From Octopus vulgaris (lineage: Eukaryota): a stretch of 64,000 bases of DNA. A model generated the notes under the pieces. That model saw nothing but the letters and a program-made list of their open reading frames with translations. It had not been told where the DNA came from and ran no database searches. Every line of letters begins with the position of its first letter. Position 1 is the first letter of the stretch. Both the position numbers and the translations under genes were made by a program. The stretch covers positions 4,898,001 to 4,962,000 of the forward strand of contig OX597837.1 of assembly GCA_951406725.2 (NCBI GenBank), read 5' to 3'. Positions 482 through 62,525 of the stretch are shown piece after piece.

Positions 482-3400
482 GACAGGCTTCTTTCAGTTT
501 CCATCTACCAAATCCACTCACAAGGCTTTGGTTGGCCCGAGGCTATAGCAGAAGACACTTGCCCAAGATGTCAGAACCCGGAACCATGTGGTTGGTTAGC
601 AAGCTACTTACCACACAGCCACTCCTGCACTTATTCTATATCTATATATGTTAATCTCTTTTGCCAAACTGCTAAGTTACAGGGACGTAAACACATCAAA
701 AGCAGTTGTCAAGCAGTGGCCAGGAACAAAGACACACACATACAACTAGAGGTGCAATGGTCCAGTGGTTAGGGCAGCGGACTTGCGGTCGGAAGATCGC
801 AGTTTCAATTCCCAGACCGGTTGATGTGTGTGTTTATTGAGCGAAAACACCTGAAGCTCCACGAGGCTCCGGCTGGGGGTGGTGGCGACCCCTGTTGTAC
901 TCTTTAGCTCTAACTTTCTATCACTCTTTCTTCCTGTTTCTTATCCTCGACTTCCTACACAACCGCTGAGCCTGGATGCGCATTCATCCATTTGTCGATG
1001 CTCTCGGTCTCGGGGGTTGACCTGCTTTCTCATCTGTGGGTCTTACGAATAGCAAAGGCCCACGTTTCGGACTTCTCCCACTAGGGACGAAGACTGCTTT
1101 GCTCAACAAGCAAACAAAACACCAGCATCAACACCAATGTTTTTTACACGGTACAGATCTTTTCGGTTTGAACGGCAGTTTTTAACATTATTTCTAGGTA
1201 ACTAAAAAATTTTTAACTTCGTATACTGCTAGAATGTGTTTATAAAACATCTTTTTCTCTTGGCTTTATTGAGAAAATTCTATAGTTTGTAAGATATTTG
1301 TAGTTTTTTTTCTTCAATTTCTGCAATTTCAACCAATCAGTGACGTCTATTGAGGTAAAAAAAATCATGTGCCGTATGAATATTTTCCTCGTTTAAGAAA
1401 CAGATTGGGTTTATTTACATTTGTGAAGAAAAAAAAGATACCCTTCCCCCCACCTCTAACCCTAACCCTAAAACAGATTGAAATGCAATAGATCCATACT
1501 AGGGTCATAATTATGGGTGACAATTTCATATGACACCGCTAGAAAAAACTGCCGTTCAAAGCAAAAAGATCCCACAGTACCTTGGTGTTAGGATTTCAGT
1601 TTTGTTATTGTAGGCAGGTTTTCTCGAATACAGCAATGCACTGCATATCTCAGTCCCCTGCCAACTCCTTCATAAGGGTCACCAAAAAATATTTTTTTAA
1701 ATGCTCGCCATACTAAGTAAAAACACTTCCAGACTGTTCTATAGAGAAAGATATTCATTATCATCATCGTTTAACGTCCGTGTTCCATGCTAGCATGGGT
1801 TGGACGGTTCCACCGGGGTCTGGGAAGCCAGGAGACTGCACCAGGCTCCAGTCTGATCTGGCAGTGTTTCTAAAGCTGGATGCCCTTCCTAACGCTAACT
1901 ACTCCTTGAGTGTAGTGGTAATATATTTGGAGGATATCATGCTATCATAGGACAGGCATGAACCTCAGGACATATCATAATTCAGCTAACTGAGGAATGT
2001 ATTCAATGAGGGGACCCCTAAGACTGTTCAGAAATGCACCCAGTCTATGCTGTAAAGTTGTTGGAGATAAGGAAGAGGGCTAACTGTAAAACTCATGCTA
2101 AAATAAAATAAATCAGCCACAAATAAAGATTCATAGGGTTTTCTGTTGCATGTGTAAGATAAAGGAGGATAATGGAAGAAATATATACATGTTGTGATGG
2201 AACAGACTTGCAAAATCCATGTTAGGATGGGAGGAAAGAAATACGATGATGACGATGAGACTGATGATGATGACAACGATGAAGATAATGAAGACGATGA
2301 TGAAGACGATGATGATGAAATTGATGATGATGAAAATGATGATGACGATGAAATTGATGATGATGATGAAAATGATGATGACGATAAAATTGATGATGAT
2401 GATGAAAATGATGAAGATAATGAAGACGATGATGAAGACGATGATGATGAAAATGATGATGACGATGAAATTGATGATGATGAAAATGATGAAGATAATG
2501 AAGACGATGATGATGACAACGATGATGAAATTGATGGTGATGAAAATGATGATGACGATGAAATTGATGATGACGATGAAATTGATGATGACGATAAAAT
2601 TGATGATGATGATGAAGACGATGATGATGACAACGATGATGACGATGAAATTGATGGTGATGAAAATGATGATGACGATGAAATTGATGATGACGATGAA
2701 ATTGATGATGACGATGAAATTGATGATGATGAAAATGATGAAGACGATGAAATTGATGATGATGAAAATGATGATGATGATGAAAATGATGATGACGATG
2801 AAATTGATGATGATGAAAATGATGACGATGAAATTGATGATGATGAAAATGATGATGACGATGAAATTGATGATGATGAAAATGATGATGATGATGAAAA
2901 TGATGATGACGATGAAATTGATGATGATGAAAATGATGATGATGAAATTGATGATGATGAAATTGATGATGATGAAAATAATGATGATGACGATGAAACT
3001 GAAAATGATGAAGATAATGAAGACGATGATGATGCCAATGATGATGACGATAACAGTGAAGACAATGGAGATGCTGACAGCAAAGATAATGATGACAATG
3101 ACAGTGAAGATGATGACGATGATGATGATGGTGATGGTGGTGGTATTAGGATCCAGTGTACTCACCTCTTCATAGCTGTATGGTCCCAAGCGTTCTTTGT
3201 CAGCATTCCCATAATACCATTCTTTTTCACTTTCTCGTTTCATGTCAACGCCAGCTTCCAGAAGATTGCTCTGGAACGACCGAAATTAGAACAGATGAAA
3301 TGTTATTTAAAATTGAGATGAAATGTTATTTAAAATCATATTCTATTACATATTTAAGACAAGACACTAACCACTAGACCAAGTGCCTAAAGTTAGTCCT

Positions 3401-44200: not shown

Positions 44201-44683
44201 GCAATTTCAACCAATTATTGACGTCTATTGAGGTAAAAAAAACATTCTGTGCCGTATGAAAATGTCCCTCGTTTAAGAAACAGATTGGGATTTATTTACA
44301 TTTGTGAAGAAAAAAATGATACCCTTTCACCCACCCGTAACCCTAAAACAGATTGAAATGCAATAGATTGATACTAGGGTCATAATTATGGGTGACAATT
44401 TCATATGACACCGCTAGAAAAAACTGCCGTTCAAACCGAAGAGATCCCAAAAATTTTAGGACAATAAAAATAAGAAAAAAATGTGGAAATTTTACTGGTG
44501 AGTGTGTTCCATTATAAGGCACAAAAAGAAAATGACTCTCCCTTGACACAAGTAGTTTTGAGAGAAATCTGTTCAATAAATACATTCTGGAGTACCAATA
44601 CAATAGAATACTCACTTTCCTTTCCAAGAATGTTTTGTGATGAAATAGCAGGCTATGTCTATGTTGTCTTTGATGGAATCCAT
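1..44683 (-). CDS. DNAJC13: DnaJ homolog subfamily C member 13 (RME-8), first 1000 codons in 29 exons; 3' part lies outside the window
   Basis: The spliced translation [34 protein letters not shown]...[40 protein letters not shown] is colinear with human DNAJC13 as I recall it. All introns are GT-AG and all exon phases are compatible. Confidence 0.97.
226..630 (-). mobile_element. tRNA-derived SINE family A with internal (TA/CA)n microsatellite. Other copies about 5883-6225, 11900-12410, 18800-19193, 28800-29105, 33345-33742, 46194-46592, 48080-48243, 48920-49890, 53625-53772, 54765-55152, 55785-56100, 59625-59780, 61131-61393
   Basis: Head GGAGTGGCTGTGTGGTAAG...GGTTCAGTCCC (A/B boxes), CCTTGGGCAAGT core and (GTAAAAGA)n tail; more than 12 similar copies in both orientations. 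Confidence 0.9.
750..1120 (+). mobile_element. tRNA-derived SINE family D; second copy about 40822-41010
   Basis: A box TGGTCCAGTGG and B box GTTTCAATTCCC; body shared with the 40822 copy. Confidence 0.75.
1155..1572 (+). mobile_element. MITE with ~29-bp TIRs (GGATCTTTTCGGTTTGAACGGCAGTTTTT) and 8-bp TSD, Merlin-like
   Basis: TIRs at both ends; flanks cacggtac/cacagtac. Confidence 0.85.
2244..3135. repeat. Compound degenerate (GAT)n triplet repeat with higher-order units (GATGAAATT, GATGAAAAT, GACGAT)
   Basis: Directly visible; accounts for the four overlapping low-complexity ORFs at 2028-3321. Confidence 0.95.
3166..3270 (-). CDS. DNAJC13: DNAJC13 coding exon 28 ([35 protein letters not shown])
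   Basis: gttccag|...|gtgagt; 105 nt; start of the GYF_2-like region. Confidence 0.96.
3822..3923 (-). CDS. DNAJC13: DNAJC13 coding exon 27 ([34 protein letters not shown])
   Basis: atttcag|...|gtaagg; 102 nt. Confidence 0.96.
5160..5368. repeat. Perfect palindrome with 104-bp arms and a 1-nt centre (5264); probably an inverted Penelope-type terminal repeat
   Basis: Arms are base-for-base reverse complements. Confidence 0.92.
5301..5351 (+). ncRNA. Type I hammerhead ribozyme motif, mirrored on the minus strand at 5177-5227
   Basis: AGCCUC-CUGAUGA-(UUCA/UGAA stem II)-GAAA-CAG/CUG stem III-UA-GAAGCU; stem I has one mismatch. Confidence 0.7.
5578..5640 (-). CDS. DNAJC13: DNAJC13 coding exon 26 ([21 protein letters not shown])
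   Basis: tttccag|...|gtgagt; 63 nt. Confidence 0.95.
6455..6614 (-). CDS. DNAJC13: DNAJC13 coding exon 25 ([13 protein letters not shown]...[11 protein letters not shown])
   Basis: ttaccag|...|gtaagt; 160 nt. Confidence 0.96.
7084..7471 (-). mobile_element. GC-rich ~370-390-bp repeat resembling an RTE/BovB-type LINE 5'UTR; other copies 17555-17922 (+) and 26473-26860 (-)
   Basis: Three colinear copies; motif GAGCTATGCCGT...TAGGGCCACCCAAGGCGGA..GGTC.TGACA resembles the RTE 5'UTR motif as I recall it. Confidence 0.65.
7774..7843 (-). CDS. DNAJC13: DNAJC13 coding exon 24 ([22 protein letters not shown])
   Basis: atccaag|...|gtaagt; 70 nt. Confidence 0.94.
7874..8037 (-). mobile_element. Solo partial copy of the TTAA piggyBac-type MITE that forms the 34.9-37.8 kb array
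   Basis: ttaaCCCTTTCGTTAC terminus; body is the reverse complement of the array unit. Confidence 0.85.
8040..8529 (+). mobile_element. CR1/L2-like LINE 3' fragment with (ATT)n tail
   Basis: Translation [27 protein letters not shown] matches the C-terminal FF..RV...W..LP..VV...FK signature of CR1-clade ORF2. Confidence 0.8.
9440..9890 (-). mobile_element. Repeat family B: (ATG)n-tailed retroposon with a variable number of internal GTGCCGGTGGCAC hairpin units. About 20 copies, e.g. 1760-1918, 10190-10530, 14955-15250, 19200-19600, 20778-21157, 22155-22412, 23575-24240, 24757-25172, 28250-28670, 39530-40095, 42535-42940, 62850-63180
   Basis: Shared core GGTTGGCGTTAGGAAGGGCATCCAGCTGTAGAAA and tail CCAACCCATGCTAGCATGGAAAGCGGACGTTAAACGATGATG. 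Confidence 0.9.
10690..10834 (-). CDS. DNAJC13: DNAJC13 coding exon 23 ([23 protein letters not shown]...EIKI)
   Basis: tcaccag|...|gtatgg; 145 nt. Confidence 0.96.
11298..11423 (-). CDS. DNAJC13: DNAJC13 coding exon 22 ([21 protein letters not shown]...NLIWNYK)
   Basis: tttgcag|...|gtatgt; 126 nt. Confidence 0.95.
12439..12552 (-). CDS. DNAJC13: DNAJC13 coding exon 21 ([11 protein letters not shown]...[17 protein letters not shown])
   Basis: tttttag|...|gtaaat; 114 nt; HWR..MG motif. Confidence 0.9.
12748..12820 (-). pseudogene. Degenerate tRNA-like sequence
   Basis: TGGTGCAATGG A box and GGTTCTAATC B-box-like motif with broken stems. Confidence 0.4.
13681..13912 (+). mobile_element. tRNA-related SINE family C (GGCGGCGAGCTGGCAGAA head). 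Copies 11525-11756, 25770-26164 (tandem), 40477-40779, 51855-52086; older relatives 11047-11263, 12911-13510, 43783-44152, 52200-52414
   Basis: B box GAGTTCAAATTCC, central GCCTTTCATCCTTTCGGGGTCGATAAA.TAAGTACCAG domain and AGCCCCTTGTGG tail. Confidence 0.9.
14337..14670 (+). mobile_element. tRNA-derived SINE family E; reverse copy about 22720-23000; related heads at 21737, 23268, 27600-27735 and 58605
   Basis: A box TGGCTCAGTGG, B-box-like CTCGATTCC and TTCTTGAGCAAGACACTT core. Confidence 0.8.
15347..15442 (-). CDS. DNAJC13: DNAJC13 coding exon 20 ([15 protein letters not shown]...[10 protein letters not shown])
   Basis: tttccag|...|gtgag; 96 nt. Confidence 0.95.
16373..16448 (-). CDS. DNAJC13: DNAJC13 coding exon 19 ([25 protein letters not shown])
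   Basis: tttgcag|...|gtaac; 76 nt. Confidence 0.95.
17176..17280. repeat. 35-bp minisatellite, 3 copies (CTGCAGCAGCCGTCCAAGAATTTGGACCTGG...)
   Basis: Units start at 17176, 17211 and 17246. Confidence 0.85.
18027..18148 (-). CDS. DNAJC13: DNAJC13 coding exon 18 ([25 protein letters not shown]...MLTN)
   Basis: gtttcag|...|gtgag; 122 nt. Confidence 0.95.
19749..19805 (-). CDS. DNAJC13: DNAJC13 coding exon 17 ([19 protein letters not shown])
   Basis: tttacag|...|gtcagt; 57 nt. Confidence 0.95.
20074..20490 (+). mobile_element. Same MITE, full copy
   Basis: Both TIRs; exact 8-bp TSD aaatttaa (20066-20073 and 20491-20498). Confidence 0.9.
21326..21481 (-). CDS. DNAJC13: DNAJC13 coding exon 16 ([30 protein letters not shown]...FKLFQ)
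   Basis: tctccag|...|gttcgt; 156 nt. Confidence 0.96.
24465..24572 (-). CDS. DNAJC13: DNAJC13 coding exon 15 ([15 protein letters not shown]...EMFNYHV)
   Basis: attctag|...|gtaag; 108 nt. Confidence 0.95.
25637..25697 (-). ncRNA. Hammerhead-like motif with variant core (CGGAAGA)
   Basis: GAUAA-CGGAAGA-GAUA..UAUC-C-GAAA-CU(CGG)AG-UU-UUAUC; stems I and III pair. Confidence 0.5.
26246..26345 (-). CDS. DNAJC13: DNAJC13 coding exon 14 ([15 protein letters not shown]...DMLCALMQ)
   Basis: cttccag|...|gtaaa; 100 nt. Confidence 0.95.
27131..27342 (+). mobile_element. 3' end of an RLE-type non-LTR retrotransposon (R4/Dong-like) inside (AAT)n
   Basis: Degenerate translation [17 protein letters not shown]...[19 protein letters not shown]; (AAT)n on both flanks. 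Confidence 0.75.
27810..27982 (-). CDS. DNAJC13: DNAJC13 coding exon 13 ([12 protein letters not shown]...[17 protein letters not shown])
   Basis: cctccag|...|gtaag; 173 nt. Confidence 0.96.
29391..29473 (-). CDS. DNAJC13: DNAJC13 coding exon 12 ([27 protein letters not shown])
   Basis: ttttcag|...|gtcagt; 83 nt. Confidence 0.94.
29577..29923 (+). mobile_element. Same MITE, internally deleted copy; partial copies at about 15611-16119 (tandem) and 44154-44448
   Basis: Both TIRs; exact 8-bp TSD tagtctgc. Confidence 0.88.
30082..30339. repeat. Fold-back inverted repeat with ~115-120-bp arms and a ~23-nt spacer
   Basis: aaagattgtttgccaac...tatttttga versus tcaaaaatata...gttggcaaacaatcttt; few mismatches and one indel. 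Confidence 0.88.
30649..30694 (+). ncRNA. Minimal type I hammerhead ribozyme (Penelope-type, no stem III)
   Basis: GACAC-CUGAUGA-A-GGCUG(loop)CAGCC-GAAAC-GUU-GUGUU; intact core with stems I and II. Confidence 0.75.
30773..30841 (-). CDS. DNAJC13: DNAJC13 coding exon 11 ([22 protein letters not shown])
   Basis: ttcctag|...|gtaag; 69 nt. Confidence 0.94.
31268..31530. repeat. Degenerate TGCATGTG/TGTGT-type tandem low-complexity repeat
   Basis: Directly visible; source of the H/T/C-rich ORFs. Confidence 0.85.
31848..31945 (-). CDS. DNAJC13: DNAJC13 coding exon 10 ([23 protein letters not shown]...)
   Basis: tttacag|...|gtaac; 98 nt. Confidence 0.95.
32230..32850. repeat. Diverged tandem repeat (~180-190-bp units built from TGCTACATGTG subunits)
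   Basis: Recurring blocks such as ccaaatgaagcagctctaaatgtgctacatgtgg. Confidence 0.75.
33042..33133 (-). CDS. DNAJC13: DNAJC13 coding exon 9 ([14 protein letters not shown]...YQSTD)
   Basis: tcttcag|...|gtaag; 92 nt. Confidence 0.94.
34639..34798 (-). CDS. DNAJC13: DNAJC13 coding exon 8 ([20 protein letters not shown]...KPLCD)
   Basis: ttgtcag|...|gtaag; 160 nt. Confidence 0.95.
34896..37805 (+). repeat. Tandem array of 12 units of ~244 bp, each a piggyBac-type MITE plus a ~20-bp spacer; whole array bounded by TTAA
   Basis: Unit CCCTTTGATACCA...TGGTAACAAAAGGG (imperfect TIR); starts at about 34900, 35146, 35388, 35625, 35870, 36114, 36359, 36604, 36848, 37091, 37336, 37581. Confidence 0.92.
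38211..38288 (+). repeat. Interstitial telomere-like array (TTAGGG variants) with a 28-bp higher-order unit
   Basis: (ttagggttttagggttagggttttaagg) x 2.8. Confidence 0.9.
38757..38899 (-). CDS. DNAJC13: DNAJC13 coding exon 7 ([13 protein letters not shown]...HKFGNF)
   Basis: atttcag|...|gtgag; 143 nt. Confidence 0.94.
40324..40377 (-). CDS. DNAJC13: DNAJC13 coding exon 6 ([18 protein letters not shown])
   Basis: ttattag|...|gtgag; 54 nt. Confidence 0.93.
41250..41396 (-). CDS. DNAJC13: DNAJC13 coding exon 5 ([13 protein letters not shown]...[11 protein letters not shown])
   Basis: ctttcag|...|gtaag; 147 nt. Confidence 0.95.
41841..41882 (-). CDS. DNAJC13: DNAJC13 coding exon 4 ([14 protein letters not shown])
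   Basis: cttccag|...|gtaag; 42 nt. Confidence 0.9.
43112..43261 (-). CDS. DNAJC13: DNAJC13 coding exon 3 (WPYSEF...[14 protein letters not shown])
   Basis: ttttccag|...|gtaag; 150 nt. Confidence 0.95.
43655..43730 (-). CDS. DNAJC13: DNAJC13 coding exon 2 ([25 protein letters not shown])
   Basis: ttttacag|...|gtaag; 76 nt; homology. Confidence 0.95.
44616..44683 (-). CDS. DNAJC13: DNAJC13 coding exon 1 ([22 protein letters not shown]); acceptor 6 nt upstream, exon starts at 44689
   Basis: tacttgcag|GACATC ATG...GGA AA|gtgag; conserved TKHSW.GK motif. Confidence 0.93.
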
Positions 44684-44874
44684 GATGTCCTGCAAGTAGA
44701 AAAGAAAGGAAGTAAGATAGATGATTGCTATAACAACGGAACCTGTGTGTGTCTTGATAAATTAATGGGGAACTATGTGGTTACTTGACATGCTAATAAC
44801 GGCAGCCAAGAAAGAAATAGAACGAAATCTCCTTCAAATCACATCTACATAGTTAAAAAAGGAAGTGTATCAGA

Positions 44875-45603
44875 CTAGAAGTTCCATCCATCCATTTTCT
44901 CTGCCCACCATTCCTGGAATGCCTTTAAGAGTAAAGTCCTCAGATACCTCCTCCATAGGGTCCTATGAGAAGCAACCATCATCACACTTTTTGGTTGGAT
45001 TCTCATGTGCAACCAACTGAGTCTATAGATATTTTCAAAAAAATTTTTCACACAAAAAGCTTCCCACCATCGTTTTAAAGACCATGATGAAAAAAAAAAT
45101 TGGAAAAATCTTCGTCAAAATGGAGAAAATCCAATTTATGTTGGGTGTCCTGATCCAAAACACCACCATTTACAGCCATTTTTAACGAGCAAAACACCTA
45201 CCCGTCCAAACATTTAAACCAAATTTTCTCAAAATAACTTGTCCTCCCTTTTGAGAAACACTGATTTAACCTAAATGTGAGACACCAGCAAAAGAAGAAA
45301 TAATGTTAGACTTTTTTTTCTATTCCAAAGAAAAACGATTTTATTCACACAAATATGCAACCAAAGAGTATAAAGTACCAGTAAGTACATCGCAACAGCT
45401 GATGTACTTGCGCGTACAAATGCACTTTCCCACGGCTTTATCGATCGCATTCTCACCTGGAATCGATTTTTGTCATTTTTTCAAGATGTATACACGCCCT
45501 GATACCGTCGGTATCTACATATCAAATTTGAGTGCAATCAGATGGAGGATGTCCAAGATCCTAGAAGACACACAGACAGACAGAATGGATTTTATATAAT
45601 AGA
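44875..45603 (-). mobile_element. Helitron-like non-autonomous element; a second 5' end fragment at about 18730-18793
   Basis: 5' end TCTATTATATAAAATC followed by (TGTC)n; candidate CTAG 3' end near 44875; 3' hairpin not clearly seen. Confidence 0.5.
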
Positions 45604-47122
45604 CATTCCATCCAAATTTTACTGAAATGGGGTTCATGTCCCAAAATTTCAGGATGTATTTAGTTCTATACCCTACTACAAATATGTCGAAACTCAATTT
45701 AGGATTTAGGTAGGCTTGAAAAAACACTGACAAATTGACTGTTTGTTACACATAACAGAACAGGTTTTACATAAACATTTCAAAAATTACCAAAAAATAA
45801 ATTTCCTTTCCAAGAACCTGAAAAAAAAAAAAAAAAGCAACATCATGGTCACTATTAGTGTAATTTAACGATGATTATCACCTCAGTTTCTAAGATATGA
45901 CGTCACAAATATGGCTAATTATTCACTACAGCCAATTAGGCAAGATTTCAACCCATTAACTGGCCATTCAAAATTGTCATATTTCCTAAAATATTCATCC
46001 AAATTTCACAAATGAGGTATAAAAATGTTTTCCGTTTCTTGGACACTTGCCAAGAAAAAGTACAGCAGAAATTACAATTAAGTATTTTCAAAAATTCATA
46101 GCGATACCCACTTAAAGCATACAAAGGCATACATATCAGCCAACAATGTTTATATTTACACATATACGTATGTGTGTGTATATATATAAATATACTCTTT
46201 TACTTGTTTCAGTCATTTTGACTGCAGCCATGCTGGAGCACCGCCTTTAGTCGAGCAACTCGACCCCAGGACTTATTCTTTGTAAGCCCAGTACTTATTC
46301 TATCAGTCTCTTTTGCCGAACCACTAAGTGACGGGTACGTAAACACACCAGCATTGGTTGTCAAGCAATGCTAGAGGGACAAACACACAAACATATACAC
46401 ACACATACATATATATATATACATATATACGACAGGCTTCTTTTAGTTTCCGTCTACCAAATCCACTCACAAGGCTCTGGTCGGCCTGAGGCTATAGCAG
46501 AAGACACTTGCCCAAGGTGCCATGCAGTGGGACTGAACCCGAAACCATGTGGTTGGTAAGCAAGCTACTTACCACACAGCCACTCCTGCACCTACATATA
46601 CATATATATATATATATGTTCTATTTTTTTTACACGTTTCAGTCATTTGATTGTGGCCATGCTGTAGCATAGTCTCAAATGGTTTTAGTCAAAATTGATC
46701 CCAGGACTGCTAAGCATTTTGCCCGGCGTGCTAACGATTCTGCCAGCTCGCCGGAAGATAAATACCAAAAGACAACATAAGGTTCCTGAGGCCGGTGTCT
46801 AACTGGACGGAAGACCACTCAAACTGTCACATCTTAAGACAGTGTATGTATTTATACGACGTGTGTTAATGTGTGTGTAAGAGTGTATGTATGCGTATGA
46901 ATGAGTATTTGTGGGTATTCTAGTCTTGATATCGTTCAATACTTGTTAAAATTAATTGCTGGGAGGTCATAAGCCTTAAACAATTTCCATAGGGTACAGG
47001 AAAGGATAGAACATCACCTGCATATGATAGAACATCACCTGCATATGATAGAACATCACCTACTATGAAGCAATGTCCATTTATTTTGTGGATGGGGAGT
47101 CAAATACAACAATAACACAAGT

Positions 47123-47153
<31 letters not shown>

Positions 47154-47705
47154 TAATATTAATAATGATAATGTTCAATCTCACCAAATATATAATTTTA
47201 TGTAATGAATAAAATATTTGATAGTGACACTTACCAAACAAAATCAATTCTTTATTTTATATATATGTATGTGCATGCATTATATGTATGCATGTGTGTA
47301 TATATATATGTATATGTACACACACACGTGTACACACATGTGTTTATGTGTATATATGTGTATATACATTTGTACATGTGTGTATGTGTGCGCATGCATG
47401 AATGTATGTATATCTGTATTTATATACATGTGTATATATGTGTGTGTGTGCATATATATATATACACACACACACATATATAAAGAACATATATATACAC
47501 ACACGTATATATAAAGAATATATATATAGACATATATAAAAGAATATGCATATATATATATATATATATACACACATACATATATACATATGTGTGTATG
47601 TACATATGTATGCATGTGTGTGTGCATGTATATATATATATATGTATGTATGTATGTATGTATATACATATGTGTGCATGTAAATGTGTGTTGTACAGTT
47701 TTTAC

Positions 47706-47736
47706 CGAGAGAGAGATCTGTTGAACCGATGCCAAC
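47706..47736 (-). other. Candidate 31-nt 5'UTR exon of DNAJC13
   Basis: Strong acceptor ttttccatttgttgtttcag and donor CG|gtaaaa; unique island between microsatellites. Confidence 0.35.
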
Positions 47737-48047
47737 CTGAAACAACAAATGGAAAATGATAATATAAAATCAACGCCGTTGTTTTAATGACCGCTTTTCC
47801 ATGCCAACACCGGCTGGACGAGGGTCTCGGTGGCAACGCTTCCATAACCAGATGCCTTACTTGGCACAAACTCATATAGCGGGGGCCCCTTATGGCATGC
47901 ACAGATATGGAATACCTATTTTTAAAAATTGGAATATTCACACACAGAGTGCATGTGAGTGGGTGGTGTGCATATATTTTGACACACAAAGATGTATGCA
48001 CACACAGACACATAAACATACATACACACACACATATGTATATATAC

Positions 48048-48080
<33 letters not shown>

Positions 48081-49119
48081 CAACGGGCTTCTTTCAGTTA
48101 ACCTCTACCAAATTCACTCACAAGGCTTTGGTCGGCCTGAGGCTATAGTAGAAGACACTTGCCCAAGGTGCCATGGAGTGGGACTGAACCTGGAACCATG
48201 TGGTTGGTAAGCAAGCTACTTACCACACAGCCACTCCTGCGCATTATTTCTACATATTCAAATAGATACACACACATTTATACATACATTCAAACACACA
48301 AAAACGTGTCTATACTGTGTGTGTGACTACATGTATGTGTATGTCTGTATGTACATGTGTGTGTATGTGTGTGACTACATTTATGTGTATGTCTGTATGT
48401 ACATGTGTATGTGTGTGTGTGACTACATTTATGTGTATATATGCATATGTGTGTGTGTGTTTTAGGGAGAATCGAATCTGGGAGGCTGTGGTGTTGATGC
48501 CTCCACACAAACACACACTACAAACACTAGATGTAACGAAACACTGGTACACGGATGCCGTAACAAACAACGACTGAAACGTCTCTATGACGCGTCAGTG
48601 GTGTTATCCAAATCAGTTGTAATTCGACAGAAACTTGGCTGCTATTTCTCACAGATGAAATCCACCCACAGGCTAGAGAGTCACTAAGTCATCGAGGGGG
48701 TGGGGATCTATGTCACCTGTCTCAGCCACCTGTTCTCTGTCGACCACCTGCACTTTTAAGCAACACATTTATGTTGTAATCAACAAGATGTATAATTAAT
48801 CTTTACCTGTAGCTTCCAGTAACTCACTAATTACAGGCAGTGATTAATTTTTTTACACTACCTTCGTTAATTAAATCGTCCGGCAAGTTATAGGCAGAAG
48901 GTTCTGAACAGCCCCAGGCACACGTAATGACTATGTGGTTAAGAGGCTCACTTTACTAACTTGTAGTTTGAGGTTCGGTCCCACTGTGTGGTAACTTTGG
49001 CAAGTGGCTTCTAGCATAGCCCCAGGGAAACCGATGTAAGTAGGTTTGCTAGGCAGAAGCTGTGAGGAAGCCTGTCATATATACACACACACACATACAT
49101 GTATAAGTAAAAATATATA

Positions 49120-49233
<114 letters not shown>

Positions 49234-49335
49234 TATATATAGACACATACATATAGATACATACACACACATATATATACACACATATAGATACACACAC
49301 ACACATATATATATATATACACACATATACATACG

Positions 49336-49367
<32 letters not shown>

Positions 49368-49375
49368 TACATACG

Positions 49376-49413
<38 letters not shown>

Positions 49414-50049
49414 TACATACGTGTGTATATATATATATATGCACACACATACATATGTATATATATATATATGCACACACACACATATGTATATATATAT
49501 ATATGCACACACACACATATGTATATATATATATATGCACACACACACATACATACGTATATATATATATATATATATACACATACACACATACGTATAT
49601 ATACACACATATACACACACACAGGAATATATACACACACATACACACATGCATATATAAATGGATATGTTTATGTGTGTCTTTATGATAGTGTTTCTCT
49701 CTGCCCACTGCTTGACAACCAGTGCTAGTTTGTTTACATCTGTACGACATAGAAGTTCAGTAAACGAGATGGACAGAATAAGTACCAAACTTAAAAGGAG
49801 AAAAAAAAAGTACTTGGGGTGGGGTCAGACCTTCAAGGCAGTGCCCCGGCATGGCCACAATCAAATGACTGAAATAAGTAAAAGATGAAAGACTCGTTAA
49901 TGTCACAATCAATGGATATCAGTCCGTTAATTCATTGCATCTACATTTGTAAACATAACGATGCAGGTTAATAAAACTAACGGGGTCATTTTCTACTCAT
50001 CCAATTTTCCAAACTCAGAAAGACCCTCAGAAGAATATATGGCAAACCA

Positions 50050-50355
50050 TCAGAGCAACACAACAGCTCCCTCGATAGGCTCATCAAGGGATAAGTCATC
50101 ACTGGTAGAGGTCCTGGAAGCCCTCATGGTGGTAATGGTGGTGGTTGTAGTGGTATTGAAAAGTCTGAGTCTGCTCTTATCAAAAGATCTCATGTGCACG
50201 TTGCTGGTTAACTGGGCGGGACTCAAAAGGCCTGTTGCCCCAGCATTGTAGCTTGTGTAAACCGCCCCTGAATTCCCTCCTAGGCCCTGACTGATCAAAC
50301 CTATAATCAAAGGCGTTAACCATTTACAGGCATTGCGAATGTGCCCCAGGGAGCC
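50050..50355 (-). CDS. Candidate second exon (GSLGHIRNACKW...EPIEGAVVLL*), in frame with the exon above
   Basis: Long pyrimidine tract ending in gcactag|; 101 open codons in phase 0. Confidence 0.4.
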   Translation of the reverse strand, partial: GSLGHIRNACKWLTPLIIGLISQGLGGNSGAVYTSYNAGATGLLSPAQLTSNVHMRSFDKSRLRLFNTTTTTTITTMRASRTSTSDDLSLDEPIEGAVVLL

Positions 50356-50463
50356 CTAGTGCAGAGTACAAGCAGGAGGAAGACGACAGAGAAGAATAAA
50401 AGTGAAGTAACTAACAAGAAGGGGGCCATATGTAAGGGCTAAGGTTTATGGGTGCCAAGTTAC

Positions 50464-50616
50464 CTCCACAGATCCATCCTCATTGGTCAGATCAATAACT
50501 TCCATCTCAAAACTATCGTCCTCGTATTCCTTACGTGTTTTCCAGCCACCACCACCATTATTATTATTATTAATAATATTATTATTGTAATTATAATTAT
50601 AATTGCGACTTGTCAT
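50464..50616 (-). CDS. Candidate unannotated coding first exon (MTSRNYN...EYEDDSFEMEVIDLTNEDGSVE)
   Basis: ATG in gcaacgATG context, donor GAG|gtaact (phase 0), upstream TATATAAG. Confidence 0.5.
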
Positions 50617-50782
50617 CGTTGCAGTGTTTACGGAATGAACACATTGAGAGAGTGGCTTGTGGATAAAGATAATCCTATAGTAATACAAGATTTAGCTAAA
50701 ACGATCAGCAGTGAAGCGGCTACTGTGTGTGGTATACAGTACACAGTGAAATTAATACTACTGCTGCTACTACTACTACTAG

Positions 50783-50790
50783 CTTATATA
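50783..50790 (-). promoter_or_regulatory. Candidate TATA box (TATATAAG)
   Basis: About 170 nt upstream of the ATG at 50616 in unique sequence; TATA-like words are common in this window. Confidence 0.3.
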
Positions 50791-50913
50791 GAGATTATCT
50801 CTAGAGAAGGTTTATATACATATATATCCACATACACATAATGCTAATTAAACTTATACAGTTTATTGTTTAGAGTATACATATATGTGTGTGTGTGTGT
50901 GTGTATATATATA

Positions 50914-51161: not shown

Positions 51162-52155
51162 CAAATATACATACATATATATAAATATATATATAAGCAT
51201 CATCAAAGTGGATGTTTAAATGATGGTATTAAATTATAAACAAACTGAATGAGCTTATTTAGCACGGTGTGTGTGTGTGTGTTTACATATATGTATATTT
51301 GTGTATATGTTTGTATGTGTATGTATGTATGTATTCTCCACACAGTCTGTAGGATCCAGTCTTCACATGTGTAGGTAGAGAGACAAGCCCTACCTCAGTA
51401 CGGGGTTGAAAGCTGTTGGCTACCCACACCGTGGTTCAGCCAGCCTGTGGAAGCTGTTGCACAGGGTGTGGCCACTATTGCATGCAGACAGCTTTGAAGA
51501 GCCACAGGTGAGGGGCAAACAAACTACTCTGAAGAGCCTCACATGTTCCTGCTGTCAGTGATACTAGCCCCATCAAGCTACTCCATGCACCTCAAGGACA
51601 TGCTCAAAGCCTCAATGAAGGGCTTTGAGACCAACCATGATGCTTGGGGAAAAACATACATAAGACTGCCCCACCTGGTGAGGATGCACCAACAGAGGTG
51701 TCACCCCTGACAAATAGAACAAGGCTGCAGGGACAGAAAGAAAATGGTCCAGAGCGAACTTCTTGTCTTCAGATCCAGCAGACCCCTAGTGTCCAACCTG
51801 TGGCAGAGCCTTCCAAGCATGCATCAGATTGATTGGCCATAGCAGGACACACTTATTTCTTTTTTAGCCCACAAGGGGCTAAATATAGAGGGTGCAAACA
51901 AGGACAGACAAAGAGATTAAGTCGATTACATCAACCTCAGTGCGTAACTGGTACTTAATTTATCGACCCCGAAAGGATGAAAGGCAAAGTCGATCTCAGC
52001 GGAATTTGAACTCAGAACATAACGGGAGACAAAATACTGCTAAGCATTTCGCCCGGCACGCTAACGTTTCTGCCAGCTCGCCACCTTCATGGCAGGACAC
52101 ACTGTAACCCGACTTCTCCCATCTGATGCCCTTGGCTCATTGCCAATAACAATGA

Positions 52156-56529: not shown

Positions 56530-57268
56530 GAGTTTGTTTTTCTCTTTGCTCACGTCATTCCGCTTCCGTTTTCTAGAAATTCAATTAATCCAAATAAAAT
56601 ATTCTTCCGATCACAAAATGGTTGACAATCATAAGATTGGGAAAAAAGAGGGAGGGGGCAAGAGAACACAAGACAAATGGAATCGGTGAACATACCGTAA
56701 AAAATGAACACATCCTTTTTTTTTTATCGTTTCAGTCTGTGGCCATGCTGGAGCACCGCCTTGAAGAGTTTAGTCCAAGTAATCAACCCCAGTACTTATG
56801 TTTTGAGCTTGGTACTTATTTTATCAAGTCTCTTTTGCTGAACTGCTAAGTGATGGGGACGTAAACAAACCAACACTGGTTATCAAGCAGTAGTGGGGGA
56901 CAAACACATACAGCTACATGCACATAAATGCATACATCTAGCACTACCTACTACTGACCAGGGGTAGAGACAAAAGAGCCACTCCCAATTCCTTCTTCCC
57001 TGACCTTAAACAATACTAAGCCCTACAACACACAAAGATTAACAGCCACAATCACACACACACATGTACACACATGTTATCATTGCACACATACACACAC
57101 ACGCAGACCTTCGTGCAAGCACATATCCACACTTACACACACATACCTCCTCTTGCACTCTCCTGTCTTTGAAAGAACTTTTCTTCACCCATTCCGTTCC
57201 GGTCATTCAAAATGTGACCGCGTGTGTACCGTTGCCGATTTTTTTTCCTCCGTCTTCCCTTCTCCTAT

Positions 57269-60646: not shown

Positions 60647-61130
60647 CAAGGGGTGTATGAAAAGTTTTGAGCCTAACCTAGAAATGGGGCTGCTAGGTAG
60701 CTGAAACAATTTTTTCTGGTAAGTACAGTCTTTTCAGAGTATTCTTGCTCATTTTCATGATTCTGAAGTTTTAATTTATTTTTTGTTAGAGATTTTTGAA
60801 TAAACAAGTGTCGAGGTTACAAGGGAAATGGAGAACACTGAGCACCGTGCTGTCATAAATTACCTACATTTGAAAGGCATGACTCGGTCAGAAATCCATG
60901 GAGATATGGTGAGAACCTTAGCAGACAATGCTCTTTCATATGCAACAGTCAAACGCTGGGTAAATGAATTCCAGCGTGGCAAGGAATGTGTGGAAGATGA
61001 TCCCACACCAGGGAGACCTTCAACTGCAACCACCGAGGACAACATTGACCTTGCTCTTGGTATGATAATGCAAGATCATCGAATATCATGTCGCCAGATA
61101 GCTGAGAGACTGGGCATCTCAAATGAAAGA
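60647..61130 (+). mobile_element. Truncated mariner transposon: left end plus transposase N-terminal HTH (ORF from 60828), cut off by a SINE
   Basis: MENTEHRAVINYLHLKG...SYATVKRWVNEFQRG...VEDDPTPGRP...DHRISCRQIAERLGIS is a typical mariner DNA-binding region; inserted in (TA)n. Confidence 0.9.
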
Positions 61131-62525
61131 CAGAAACGGAAAGAAGCCCATCGTAAATATGTATATGTGTGTGTGTATATGTTTGTGTGTCTGAATTTGT
61201 CCCCCCAACATCGCTTGACAACCGATGCTGGTGTGTTTACGTCCCCGTAACTTAGCAGCTCGGTAAAAGAGACCGACAGAATAAGTACTAGGCTTACAAA
61301 GAATAAGTCCTGGGGTCGATTTGCACGACTAAAGGTGGTGCTCCAGCATGGCCACAGTCAAATGACTGAAACAAGTAAAAGAGTAAAGAGAGTATGACAG
61401 AAAATTCCTGCGAGTATTTCCGAACTCAGCACCATCAAATTAGAAGGGAGTAATTGTAAAAAGGAAGAGAACTAAAAAATTTTTTGAAGATGTTCCCCAG
61501 TGACAAATTATTTTACAAAAGCCAATGGCTACCTTGAGTGTTTCCTTATGGCACATGCCAGATATACACACACACACACACAAAGAACTGAGTTGTACTT
61601 ACATGAGAGGAAAGCTCATCTGGGAGATATAAACATATTGAAACTATGAAACAATTTACAGTATTTAAATAACTAAGGCTTCCTTTATATTCCACCTGAT
61701 CACTGATAGGTCTTTGATCATGAGGAAGATAGACAAGACATGTGCTGACGTTACCATTTATAGAATGCAACAAAGATCAACACTATGTGTGCATGTGTGC
61801 ATGTGTGTGTATGTGTGTGTGTTTAAATAGTTACCATGACTACATGTGTTTAAATAGTCTCATGATGTGGTTAAAATAATGATTATACCATCATCGCTTA
61901 ATATCTCTTATCATGTAGGCATGGGCTGGATGGCTCAACAGGAACTAATGAGGCAGAGGGTTGCATCAAGCTCTAATGTCTACTTTGGCATGGTTTCTAC
62001 AGCTGGATGCCCTTCCTAATGCCAACCCCTTCACAGATTGTACTGGGTGCTGTTTTCCTGGCACAGGCGCTAGTGAGGTCACCAAGTACCTGAAAGACTC
62101 CATTAACTGAGTGGGGTATAGTACTGAGGGATATCAATGTATAATAGAAGGACAGGAGCAGGTTTCTTGCTGAAGAGATGAATGTATTGCTTCTCTATTT
62201 TGACAGAGAGAAAGAAAGAGAGAGGTGAGTCTTAAAGTACACACACACACACACATAAAAGAAGCTTCTTTCAATTTCCCTCAACCAAATCCACTCACAA
62301 GGTTTTGGCTGGCCAGGGGGCAATGAATACCACTGTTGCACTTGAAGGGGGTCCTATTGAATAACCTCTGACCTTAATGCAATTTTTCTAAAAGTGTATT
62401 GTAATTTTTTTTTCCTATTTCAGATCTTTTTCCTGGTTATTCTAATATGCATTCAATTACCTAGAGCATTCTATACATACATATATAGGCATGACACCAT
62501 ACCATTATATACATAAACATGACAC

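Follow-up and report, generated by a model that had tools for sequence, protein, structure and literature searches.

Does the open reading frame upstream of the start codon of DNAJC13/RME-8 in Octopus vulgaris belong to a gene of its own, extend this endosomal J-protein at its N-terminus, or encode nothing at all? We examined this question in a 64,000-nucleotide stretch of genomic DNA (the window), the minus strand of which carries the 5' half of DNAJC13; Pfam RME-8_N (PF19432) matched three exons downstream of the candidate (E = 4e-15, 2e-24 and 1e-18), and a scallop homologue gave 26 exon matches to the gene. The original prediction had described an unannotated exon with a motif of the SUMO-interacting type (SIM), joined either to a nearby frame to give a two-exon orphan gene or to the DNAJC13 acceptor at 44689.

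A candidate alternative first exon of DNAJC13

The predicted coordinates and join geometry were all correct when rechecked against the sequence. On the minus strand, TATATAAG at 50790-50783 is followed by an ATG at 50616 and by 51 codons (50464..50616) that run to a phase-0 splice donor, GAG|GTAACT (50458..50466), with 50464 as the last base of the exon. The donor scores 9.3 bits, and GTAACT is also found at one real DNAJC13 donor. A join from here to the DNAJC13 exon with the canonical start (GAC ATC ATG; 44615..44689, minus strand) is in frame, adds 53 amino acids and implies an intron of 5,774 nt (44690..50463, minus strand), as inferred from joined protein models. The other route crosses a GT..AG spacer of 108 nt into 101 open codons with a stop at 50052-50050, for a total of 152 amino acids.

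The exon proved not to be unannotated, as it is already present in public protein models of three Octopus species, and these models support the splice to DNAJC13. The O. vulgaris protein CAI9739860.1 opens with the exon's 51 residues (its residues 1-51), carries the 53 predicted residues exactly and is otherwise the short isoform CAI9739861.1; the same join is found in two more species. All 10 members of the octopod DNAJC13 cluster, from 4 species, were examined, and the leader was present in five of them, from three of the four species. The long models of O. sinensis (XP_036368774.1 and XP_036368776.1, leader MEVIDLTNEDGSVEDI) and of O. bimaculoides (XP_052832464.1 and XP_014772581.1, leader MEVIDLTNEDGFVEDS) differ from that of O. 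vulgaris in starting at a second ATG, at 50505 in the window. The remaining five members, among them short forms of all three species and the sole Argonauta model, start at the canonical Met. The proposed addition of 53 residues therefore holds for the O. vulgaris model, the only one to start at the upstream ATG, but the part shared across species is 16 residues long. This leader consists of 14 codons from the second ATG (MEVIDLTNEDGSVE; 50464..50505, minus strand) and two codons of the next exon, which supplies leader residues 15-16 and the start of PH-like domain 1 (PH1).

The second ATG has G at both -3 and +4. An out-of-frame ATG at 50558 overlaps it and could damp its use. The 37 Asn-rich residues ahead of the second ATG, confined to a single model, are probably incidental; the Asn-rich GGGG run of the original prediction is present, but reads as an AAT/GGT microsatellite (50546..50604, minus strand) translated as an Asn/Gly run, and apart from this microsatellite the candidate region is single-copy.

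RefSeq alternative models generally rest on RNA-seq introns. CAI9739860.1 is identical to the window letter for letter and so may not be independent evidence, but those of O. sinensis and O. bimaculoides do not depend on this DNA. No RNA record was listed for the stretch, and at the donor a single contig resembles RNA (run X1, 265 nt, depth 2.5, its RNA status a guess); it reads through the donor unspliced. Taking the models and the sequence together, we consider the stretch very probably an alternative first exon of DNAJC13/RME-8 and the long isoform real.

Outside Octopus the leader was not seen. In a cluster around a cuttlefish protein (15 of its 16 members listed), all 10 intact N-termini begin at the canonical Met and none carries the leader. 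Among 120 homologues listed of 394 matches, the equivalent Met start was found in 67 of the 94 with a readable N-terminus, and five of the 120 had more than 35 leading residues, none with a VIDLT-type motif. Our first homologue search with exon 1, which found nothing, covered proteins of 91-2000 aa, a range that excludes full-length DNAJC13. A search with the exon-1 peptide returned only itself, with no Atlas match and no PDB match, and the unspliced 56-aa and 51-aa frames were absent on exact look-up. The leader thus appears restricted to Octopus, within a sparse sampling of species. As far as we searched, its SIM-like character and this restriction are new to print; the isoform itself is in public databases under an automatic name only, and we found no publication that assigns it a SIM or an isoform function.

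Two other features of these models were observed. The O. vulgaris DNAJC13 models are without segments of 14, 21 and 22 residues that are found in the O. sinensis X1 model, which are either further alternative exons or annotation gaps. A cuttlefish DNAJC13 model (2524 aa) begins with about 310 unrelated residues, presumably TrmO/TsaA-like, that look like a fused neighbour gene and are probably a prediction artefact.

Conservation and possible function of the leader

The first 11 residues of the leader, MEVIDLTNEDG, are invariant across the five extended proteins of the three species. O. bimaculoides keeps 14 of the 16 residues, and the two that vary both lie in the tail adjoining PH1. At 2 changes in 16 residues between species, the leader as a whole has changed faster than the protein body (2-3%). 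The Octopus lineages concerned diverged about 34 Myr ago (PMC10700109), and a neutral rate of 0.0036 per Myr (PMC13282606) gives a divergence d of 0.12 or 0.24, depending on whether that rate is pairwise or per lineage. In a neutral simulation without indels, the probability that start, frame and donor all stay intact with at most one change in 14 was 0.148, 0.042, 0.012 and 0.001 at d = 0.1, 0.15, 0.2 and 0.3, respectively, and is about 0.1 at the low end of d. A contig from a relative (run X3) had no substitutions in 77 exon bases compared to 12 in 418 neighbouring bases (p = 0.13), which is a hint only. Support for selection on the leader is therefore moderate, and the pattern could reflect constraint on the peptide or on the DNA (promoter or splicing), as the data fit both. 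On balance, we think it fairly probable that the leader is translated and under selection.

What, then, might the leader do? The general SIM core consensus is V/I-x-D-L-T, and a pattern scan showed that the leader fits it at 50485..50499 (minus strand), where V-I-D-L-T, invariant in all five extended proteins, is followed by an acidic tract. The Thr of the core sits in a CK2-type site, TNED, that is present in all three species, and the leader has a net charge of -6. CK2 controls the PIAS1 SIM. The pattern [VI][VI]DLT occurs five times in 340,528 residues of long homologues, and VIDLT itself only in the five leaders. Patterns for the clathrin box, LIR, dileucine and YxxPhi motifs had no match in the leader. 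The earlier reading of VIDLT with acidic residues as a SIM stands as a pattern and as a match to the published PIAS1 core, but the tie to SUMO stays at the level of the motif. In a study of PIAS1 (PMC3901395), VIDLT is named as the core of SIMb, with a Kd of 16 μM for mono-SUMO2 and emphasis on the acidic flanks, and the two together are described as a high-affinity SIM for mono-SUMO. The same core, with acidic residues after it and a CK2-type site, is shared by the leader and PIAS1 SIMb, and likewise the RNF4 SIMs (PMC3901395). However, the leader has a single motif, from residue 3, in a cytoplasmic endosomal protein that lacks an SP-RING or RING, and there is no detectable homology to PIAS1 or RNF4. 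Judging by sequence, SUMO binding may be the function of the leader, with the rest of the J-protein unchanged, and we hold this tentatively, at somewhat less than even confidence.

Searches around SUMO returned little that bears directly on this reading. The Octopus SUMO sequence was not found among four genome loci matching PF11976, which read as ubiquitin-like; three of them were translated, and the fourth is a 228-nt tandem array. This array (C3:117301610-117304102, minus strand) is a 902-codon open frame with 11 identical-scoring ubiquitin-like units at 228-nt spacing, and is probably polyubiquitin. Literature searches found no paper on DNAJC13 in octopus, none on an alternative-first-exon isoform of RME-8 (judged by title) and none with a tie between RME-8 and SUMO as its topic (judged by titles and the starts of abstracts, with bioRxiv supplements outside the search). 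A Drosophila SUMO proteome table contains Rme-8, apparently in a column of members not recovered (PMC4592996). The accessible part of a review covers roles of SUMO at endosomes and a proposed SIM in STAM, and RME-8 is unmentioned there (PMC10022685). STAM (ESCRT-0) resembles the DNAJC13 leader in carrying such a motif on an endosomal sorting protein, but it is a different protein in a different arm of the pathway, and its SIM is constitutive and overlaps a UIM (same source).

A serious competing possibility, though one we would not favour, is that the exon is a real alternative 5' exon whose peptide has no job, either as a neutral, tolerated leader or because ribosomes mostly skip to the canonical ATG, the SIM look being accidental. 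Gene models generally take the first in-frame ATG. DNAJC13 tagged with GFP at its N-terminus still reaches vesicles, so a leader there is tolerated (PMC12404652). The conservation data leave room for neutrality, as the nucleotide conservation is not significant (p = 0.12-0.13) and the neutral probability is about 0.1-0.15 if divergence is near 0.1. Against it stand the 11 invariant residues with an exact PIAS1-type core and the strong context at the second ATG. In addition, the acid-flanked SIM pattern had a single occurrence, here, in 525,604 six-frame background residues, although the pattern was picked after the motif had been seen.

We find it improbable that the leader instead acts as an acidic pseudo-ligand, folding back onto the basic site in PH1 that takes up PI(3)P (or onto the one for InsP6 in PHL2-3) and lowering endosome binding as the polyD segment of Phafin2 does. 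The charge of the leader and its distance of 17 residues from K17/W20/Y24 are suited to such a role; these three residues are needed for PI(3)P binding by DNAJC13 (PMC12404652) and are intact in octopus DNAJC13. The basic pockets have been described (10.64898/2026.07.28.740790), and in Phafin2 polyD inhibits the PH domain in cis (PMC9324892). In both proteins, a PI(3)P-binding PH domain shares its chain with a short acidic stretch. However, that of DNAJC13 is N-terminal, belongs to just one isoform and contains a hydrophobic core. Autoinhibition leaves this invariant V-I-x-L core unexplained, and the two residues that vary sit in the tail beside PH1.

Possible prediction error, the proposed orphan gene and neighbouring repeats

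Could the join be a gene-prediction artefact repeated across annotations, with the stretch being simply DNAJC13 intron 1? Across the region, runs X1 and X2 gave unspliced contigs of depth 2.5-2.8, and the canonical Met start of the cuttlefish-protein cluster also suits this view. Sequences of similar appearance are not rare: with splice matrices trained on 23 donors and 24 acceptors of DNAJC13 (two of the 24 training junctions skipped an exon, so we removed one donor and adjusted one acceptor manually), an ATG with at least 45 codons and an equally good donor occurred 18 times in 525,600 strand-bases, the candidate included, 7 of them in phase 0. Location of the alternative exon inside an intron of the short isoform would explain unspliced, low-depth contigs as nascent RNA or DNA. 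Moreover, the same join is modelled in three species, in each alongside a short isoform, and O. bimaculoides has it under two separate accessions. An artefact is therefore quite unlikely.

The exon is exon-like in donor strength and codon score. Its donor falls mid-range among the 23 real DNAJC13 donors (leave-one-out 3.5-12.3 bits). We also trained a codon-usage score on pieces of DNAJC13 exons, 43 in all; measured against 5,974 null open stretches, the 27 codons that follow GGGG come within the top 0.7%. We rejected the candidate as an internal exon, as all upstream acceptors score 3.0 bits or less.

The two-exon orphan gene of 152 aa is very unlikely: both frames are open, a pyrimidine-rich tract precedes the acceptor of the GT-AG intron and the mapped pieces of runs X1, X2 and X5 have no frame-breaking gap, but the acceptor scores -0.2 bits, below all 24 real DNAJC13 acceptors (4.1-17.5), and the intron, at 108 nt, falls short of even the smallest of 22 measured DNAJC13 introns (393 nt). 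Its proposed second exon (50050..50355, minus strand) we judge to be intronic rather than coding. Contigs of four sequencing runs were compared over 49700-50850; that of run X1 continues unspliced past the donor and through all 108 nt of the proposed intron, and no splice joint was found there among those listed. The 14 listed exon-2 substitutions comprise nine non-synonymous and five synonymous changes (3.4-4.2 synonymous changes expected by chance), as under neutrality (p = 0.24-0.41). The X3 contig has 495 letters on 514 bases, from which a net loss of 19 nt, and hence a frameshift, is inferred from one contig at depth 4.9; the only depth bins that leave room for this gap are inside exon 2, where a 6-nt direct repeat lies 19 nt apart at 50266/50285. 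The codon usage of exon 2 ranks at 22% among 170 null stretches, an old repeat (E = 4e-15) has its edge at the stop codon, and no AATAAA or ATTAAA is found within 450 nt. Exon 2 had no matches in 1.84 billion representatives and no paralogue in the genome. Translation in all six frames, with stops ignored, yielded no meaningful Pfam match.

Other origins for this sequence were considered and rejected. Exon 2 is not a SINE remnant, since a 14-copy profile had no match there and a short profile did no better than its reversed control (E = 8.8). A decayed SIM+RING (RNF4-like) pseudogene, spotted by eye, fell away because its RING-like part is mostly within the old repeat, and extension of that repeat into 50062-50545 was discounted because 25 flanks were overall no better than reversed controls.

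The window also contains several repeats. The old repeat is a split copy (48658-48905 and 49913-50052, plus strand) of a family of about 700 bp that reaches the stop codon of the 152-aa frame; its copies are 67-82% alike (46 matches from 40 scored candidates of 174), its ends are TGTAGTG ... CACTAAA (imperfect inverted termini), and a SINE-like piece and a TA block break it up. At 51335-51850 (plus strand) there is the decayed 3' end of a multi-copy LINE that includes a C2H2-like finger and that we take to be RTE-like (40 of 40 scored candidates match), and at 60804-61250 (plus strand) a transposase remnant (HTH_32, E = 2.6e-7), presumably mariner-like. The segment 45207-45606 belongs to an abundant family of repeats, each about 400 bp long, whose copies are about 89% alike. 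A DNAJC13 intron contains a GAT/GAC-rich tandem repeat of about 1 kb (2131-3145); both strands are open there for 300-380 codons, and the plus strand reads as poly-D/E.

Two putative promoters and the significance of the leader

The TATATAAG element (minus strand) is a possible promoter element, albeit a weak one: the TATA box noted originally is present, but such sequences are common by chance. TATAWAWR has a frequency of 18.6 per kb, TATATAAG was counted 34 times in 525,600 strand-bases, and two further TATAWAWR sequences lie at 50826 and 50818. At 56530-56570 of the window (minus strand), CGGAAGCGGAA adjoins TGACGTGA; we take them to be ETS- and CRE-like, and they may mark a second promoter ahead of DNAJC13. 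A Pre-SET/SET frame lies about 67 kb upstream of the exon, and prediction gave no other credible coding exon in the interval, with Pfam run on 9 of the 42 candidate frames. The Pre-SET/SET frame, the nearest upstream gene found, has 295 open codons on the minus strand (Pre-SET, E = 5e-10; SET, E = 8e-5) and is presumably SETMAR-like. At about C24:4,997,330-4,997,560 (minus strand) there is a CpG-rich, first-exon-like stretch with CGGAA motifs, presumably ETS-like, that ends in TCA|GTGAGT and lies within an 11-kb CpG-rich block, 91.5-102.5 kb from the window start. This stretch is our best candidate for a housekeeping 5' exon of the short DNAJC13 isoform, which would imply an intron of about 55 kb.

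Returning to SUMO binding by the leader, the mechanism that we propose would begin with two promoters. The short form would come from the CpG-rich non-coding first exon about 55 kb upstream, and a second promoter near 50.8 kb would drive the alternative exon, with translation mainly from the ATG at 50505. Judging by its composition and N-terminal position, the leader would be disordered. In the PIAS1-type mechanism, a SIM acts with CK2 phosphorylation; similarly, the VIDLT core would bind SUMO as a beta-strand, aided by the acidic tail and by CK2 phosphorylation of its Thr. The long isoform could then bind SUMOylated partners at endosomes without losing PI(3)P binding by PH1. In its fullest form, this proposal states that Octopus gained from non-coding DNA a promoter-switched exon that places a phospho-regulated, PIAS1-grade SIM on RME-8 and, in some tissues, couples SUMOylated cargo or Rabs to retromer/WASH sorting, a scenario that, taken as a whole, is rather unlikely, if by no means far-fetched.

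The start of DNAJC13 is nearly always one fixed Met directly before the lipid-binding domain, as the homologue counts above illustrate. If the leader does not bind SUMO, the long form is an ordinary annotated isoform. If it does, an exon of 14 codons would have connected an ancient endosomal sorting protein with the SUMO system in a single lineage, a compact example of exon gain giving rise to a short linear motif. It would also offer a handle on how SUMO acts at endosomes (PMC10022685).
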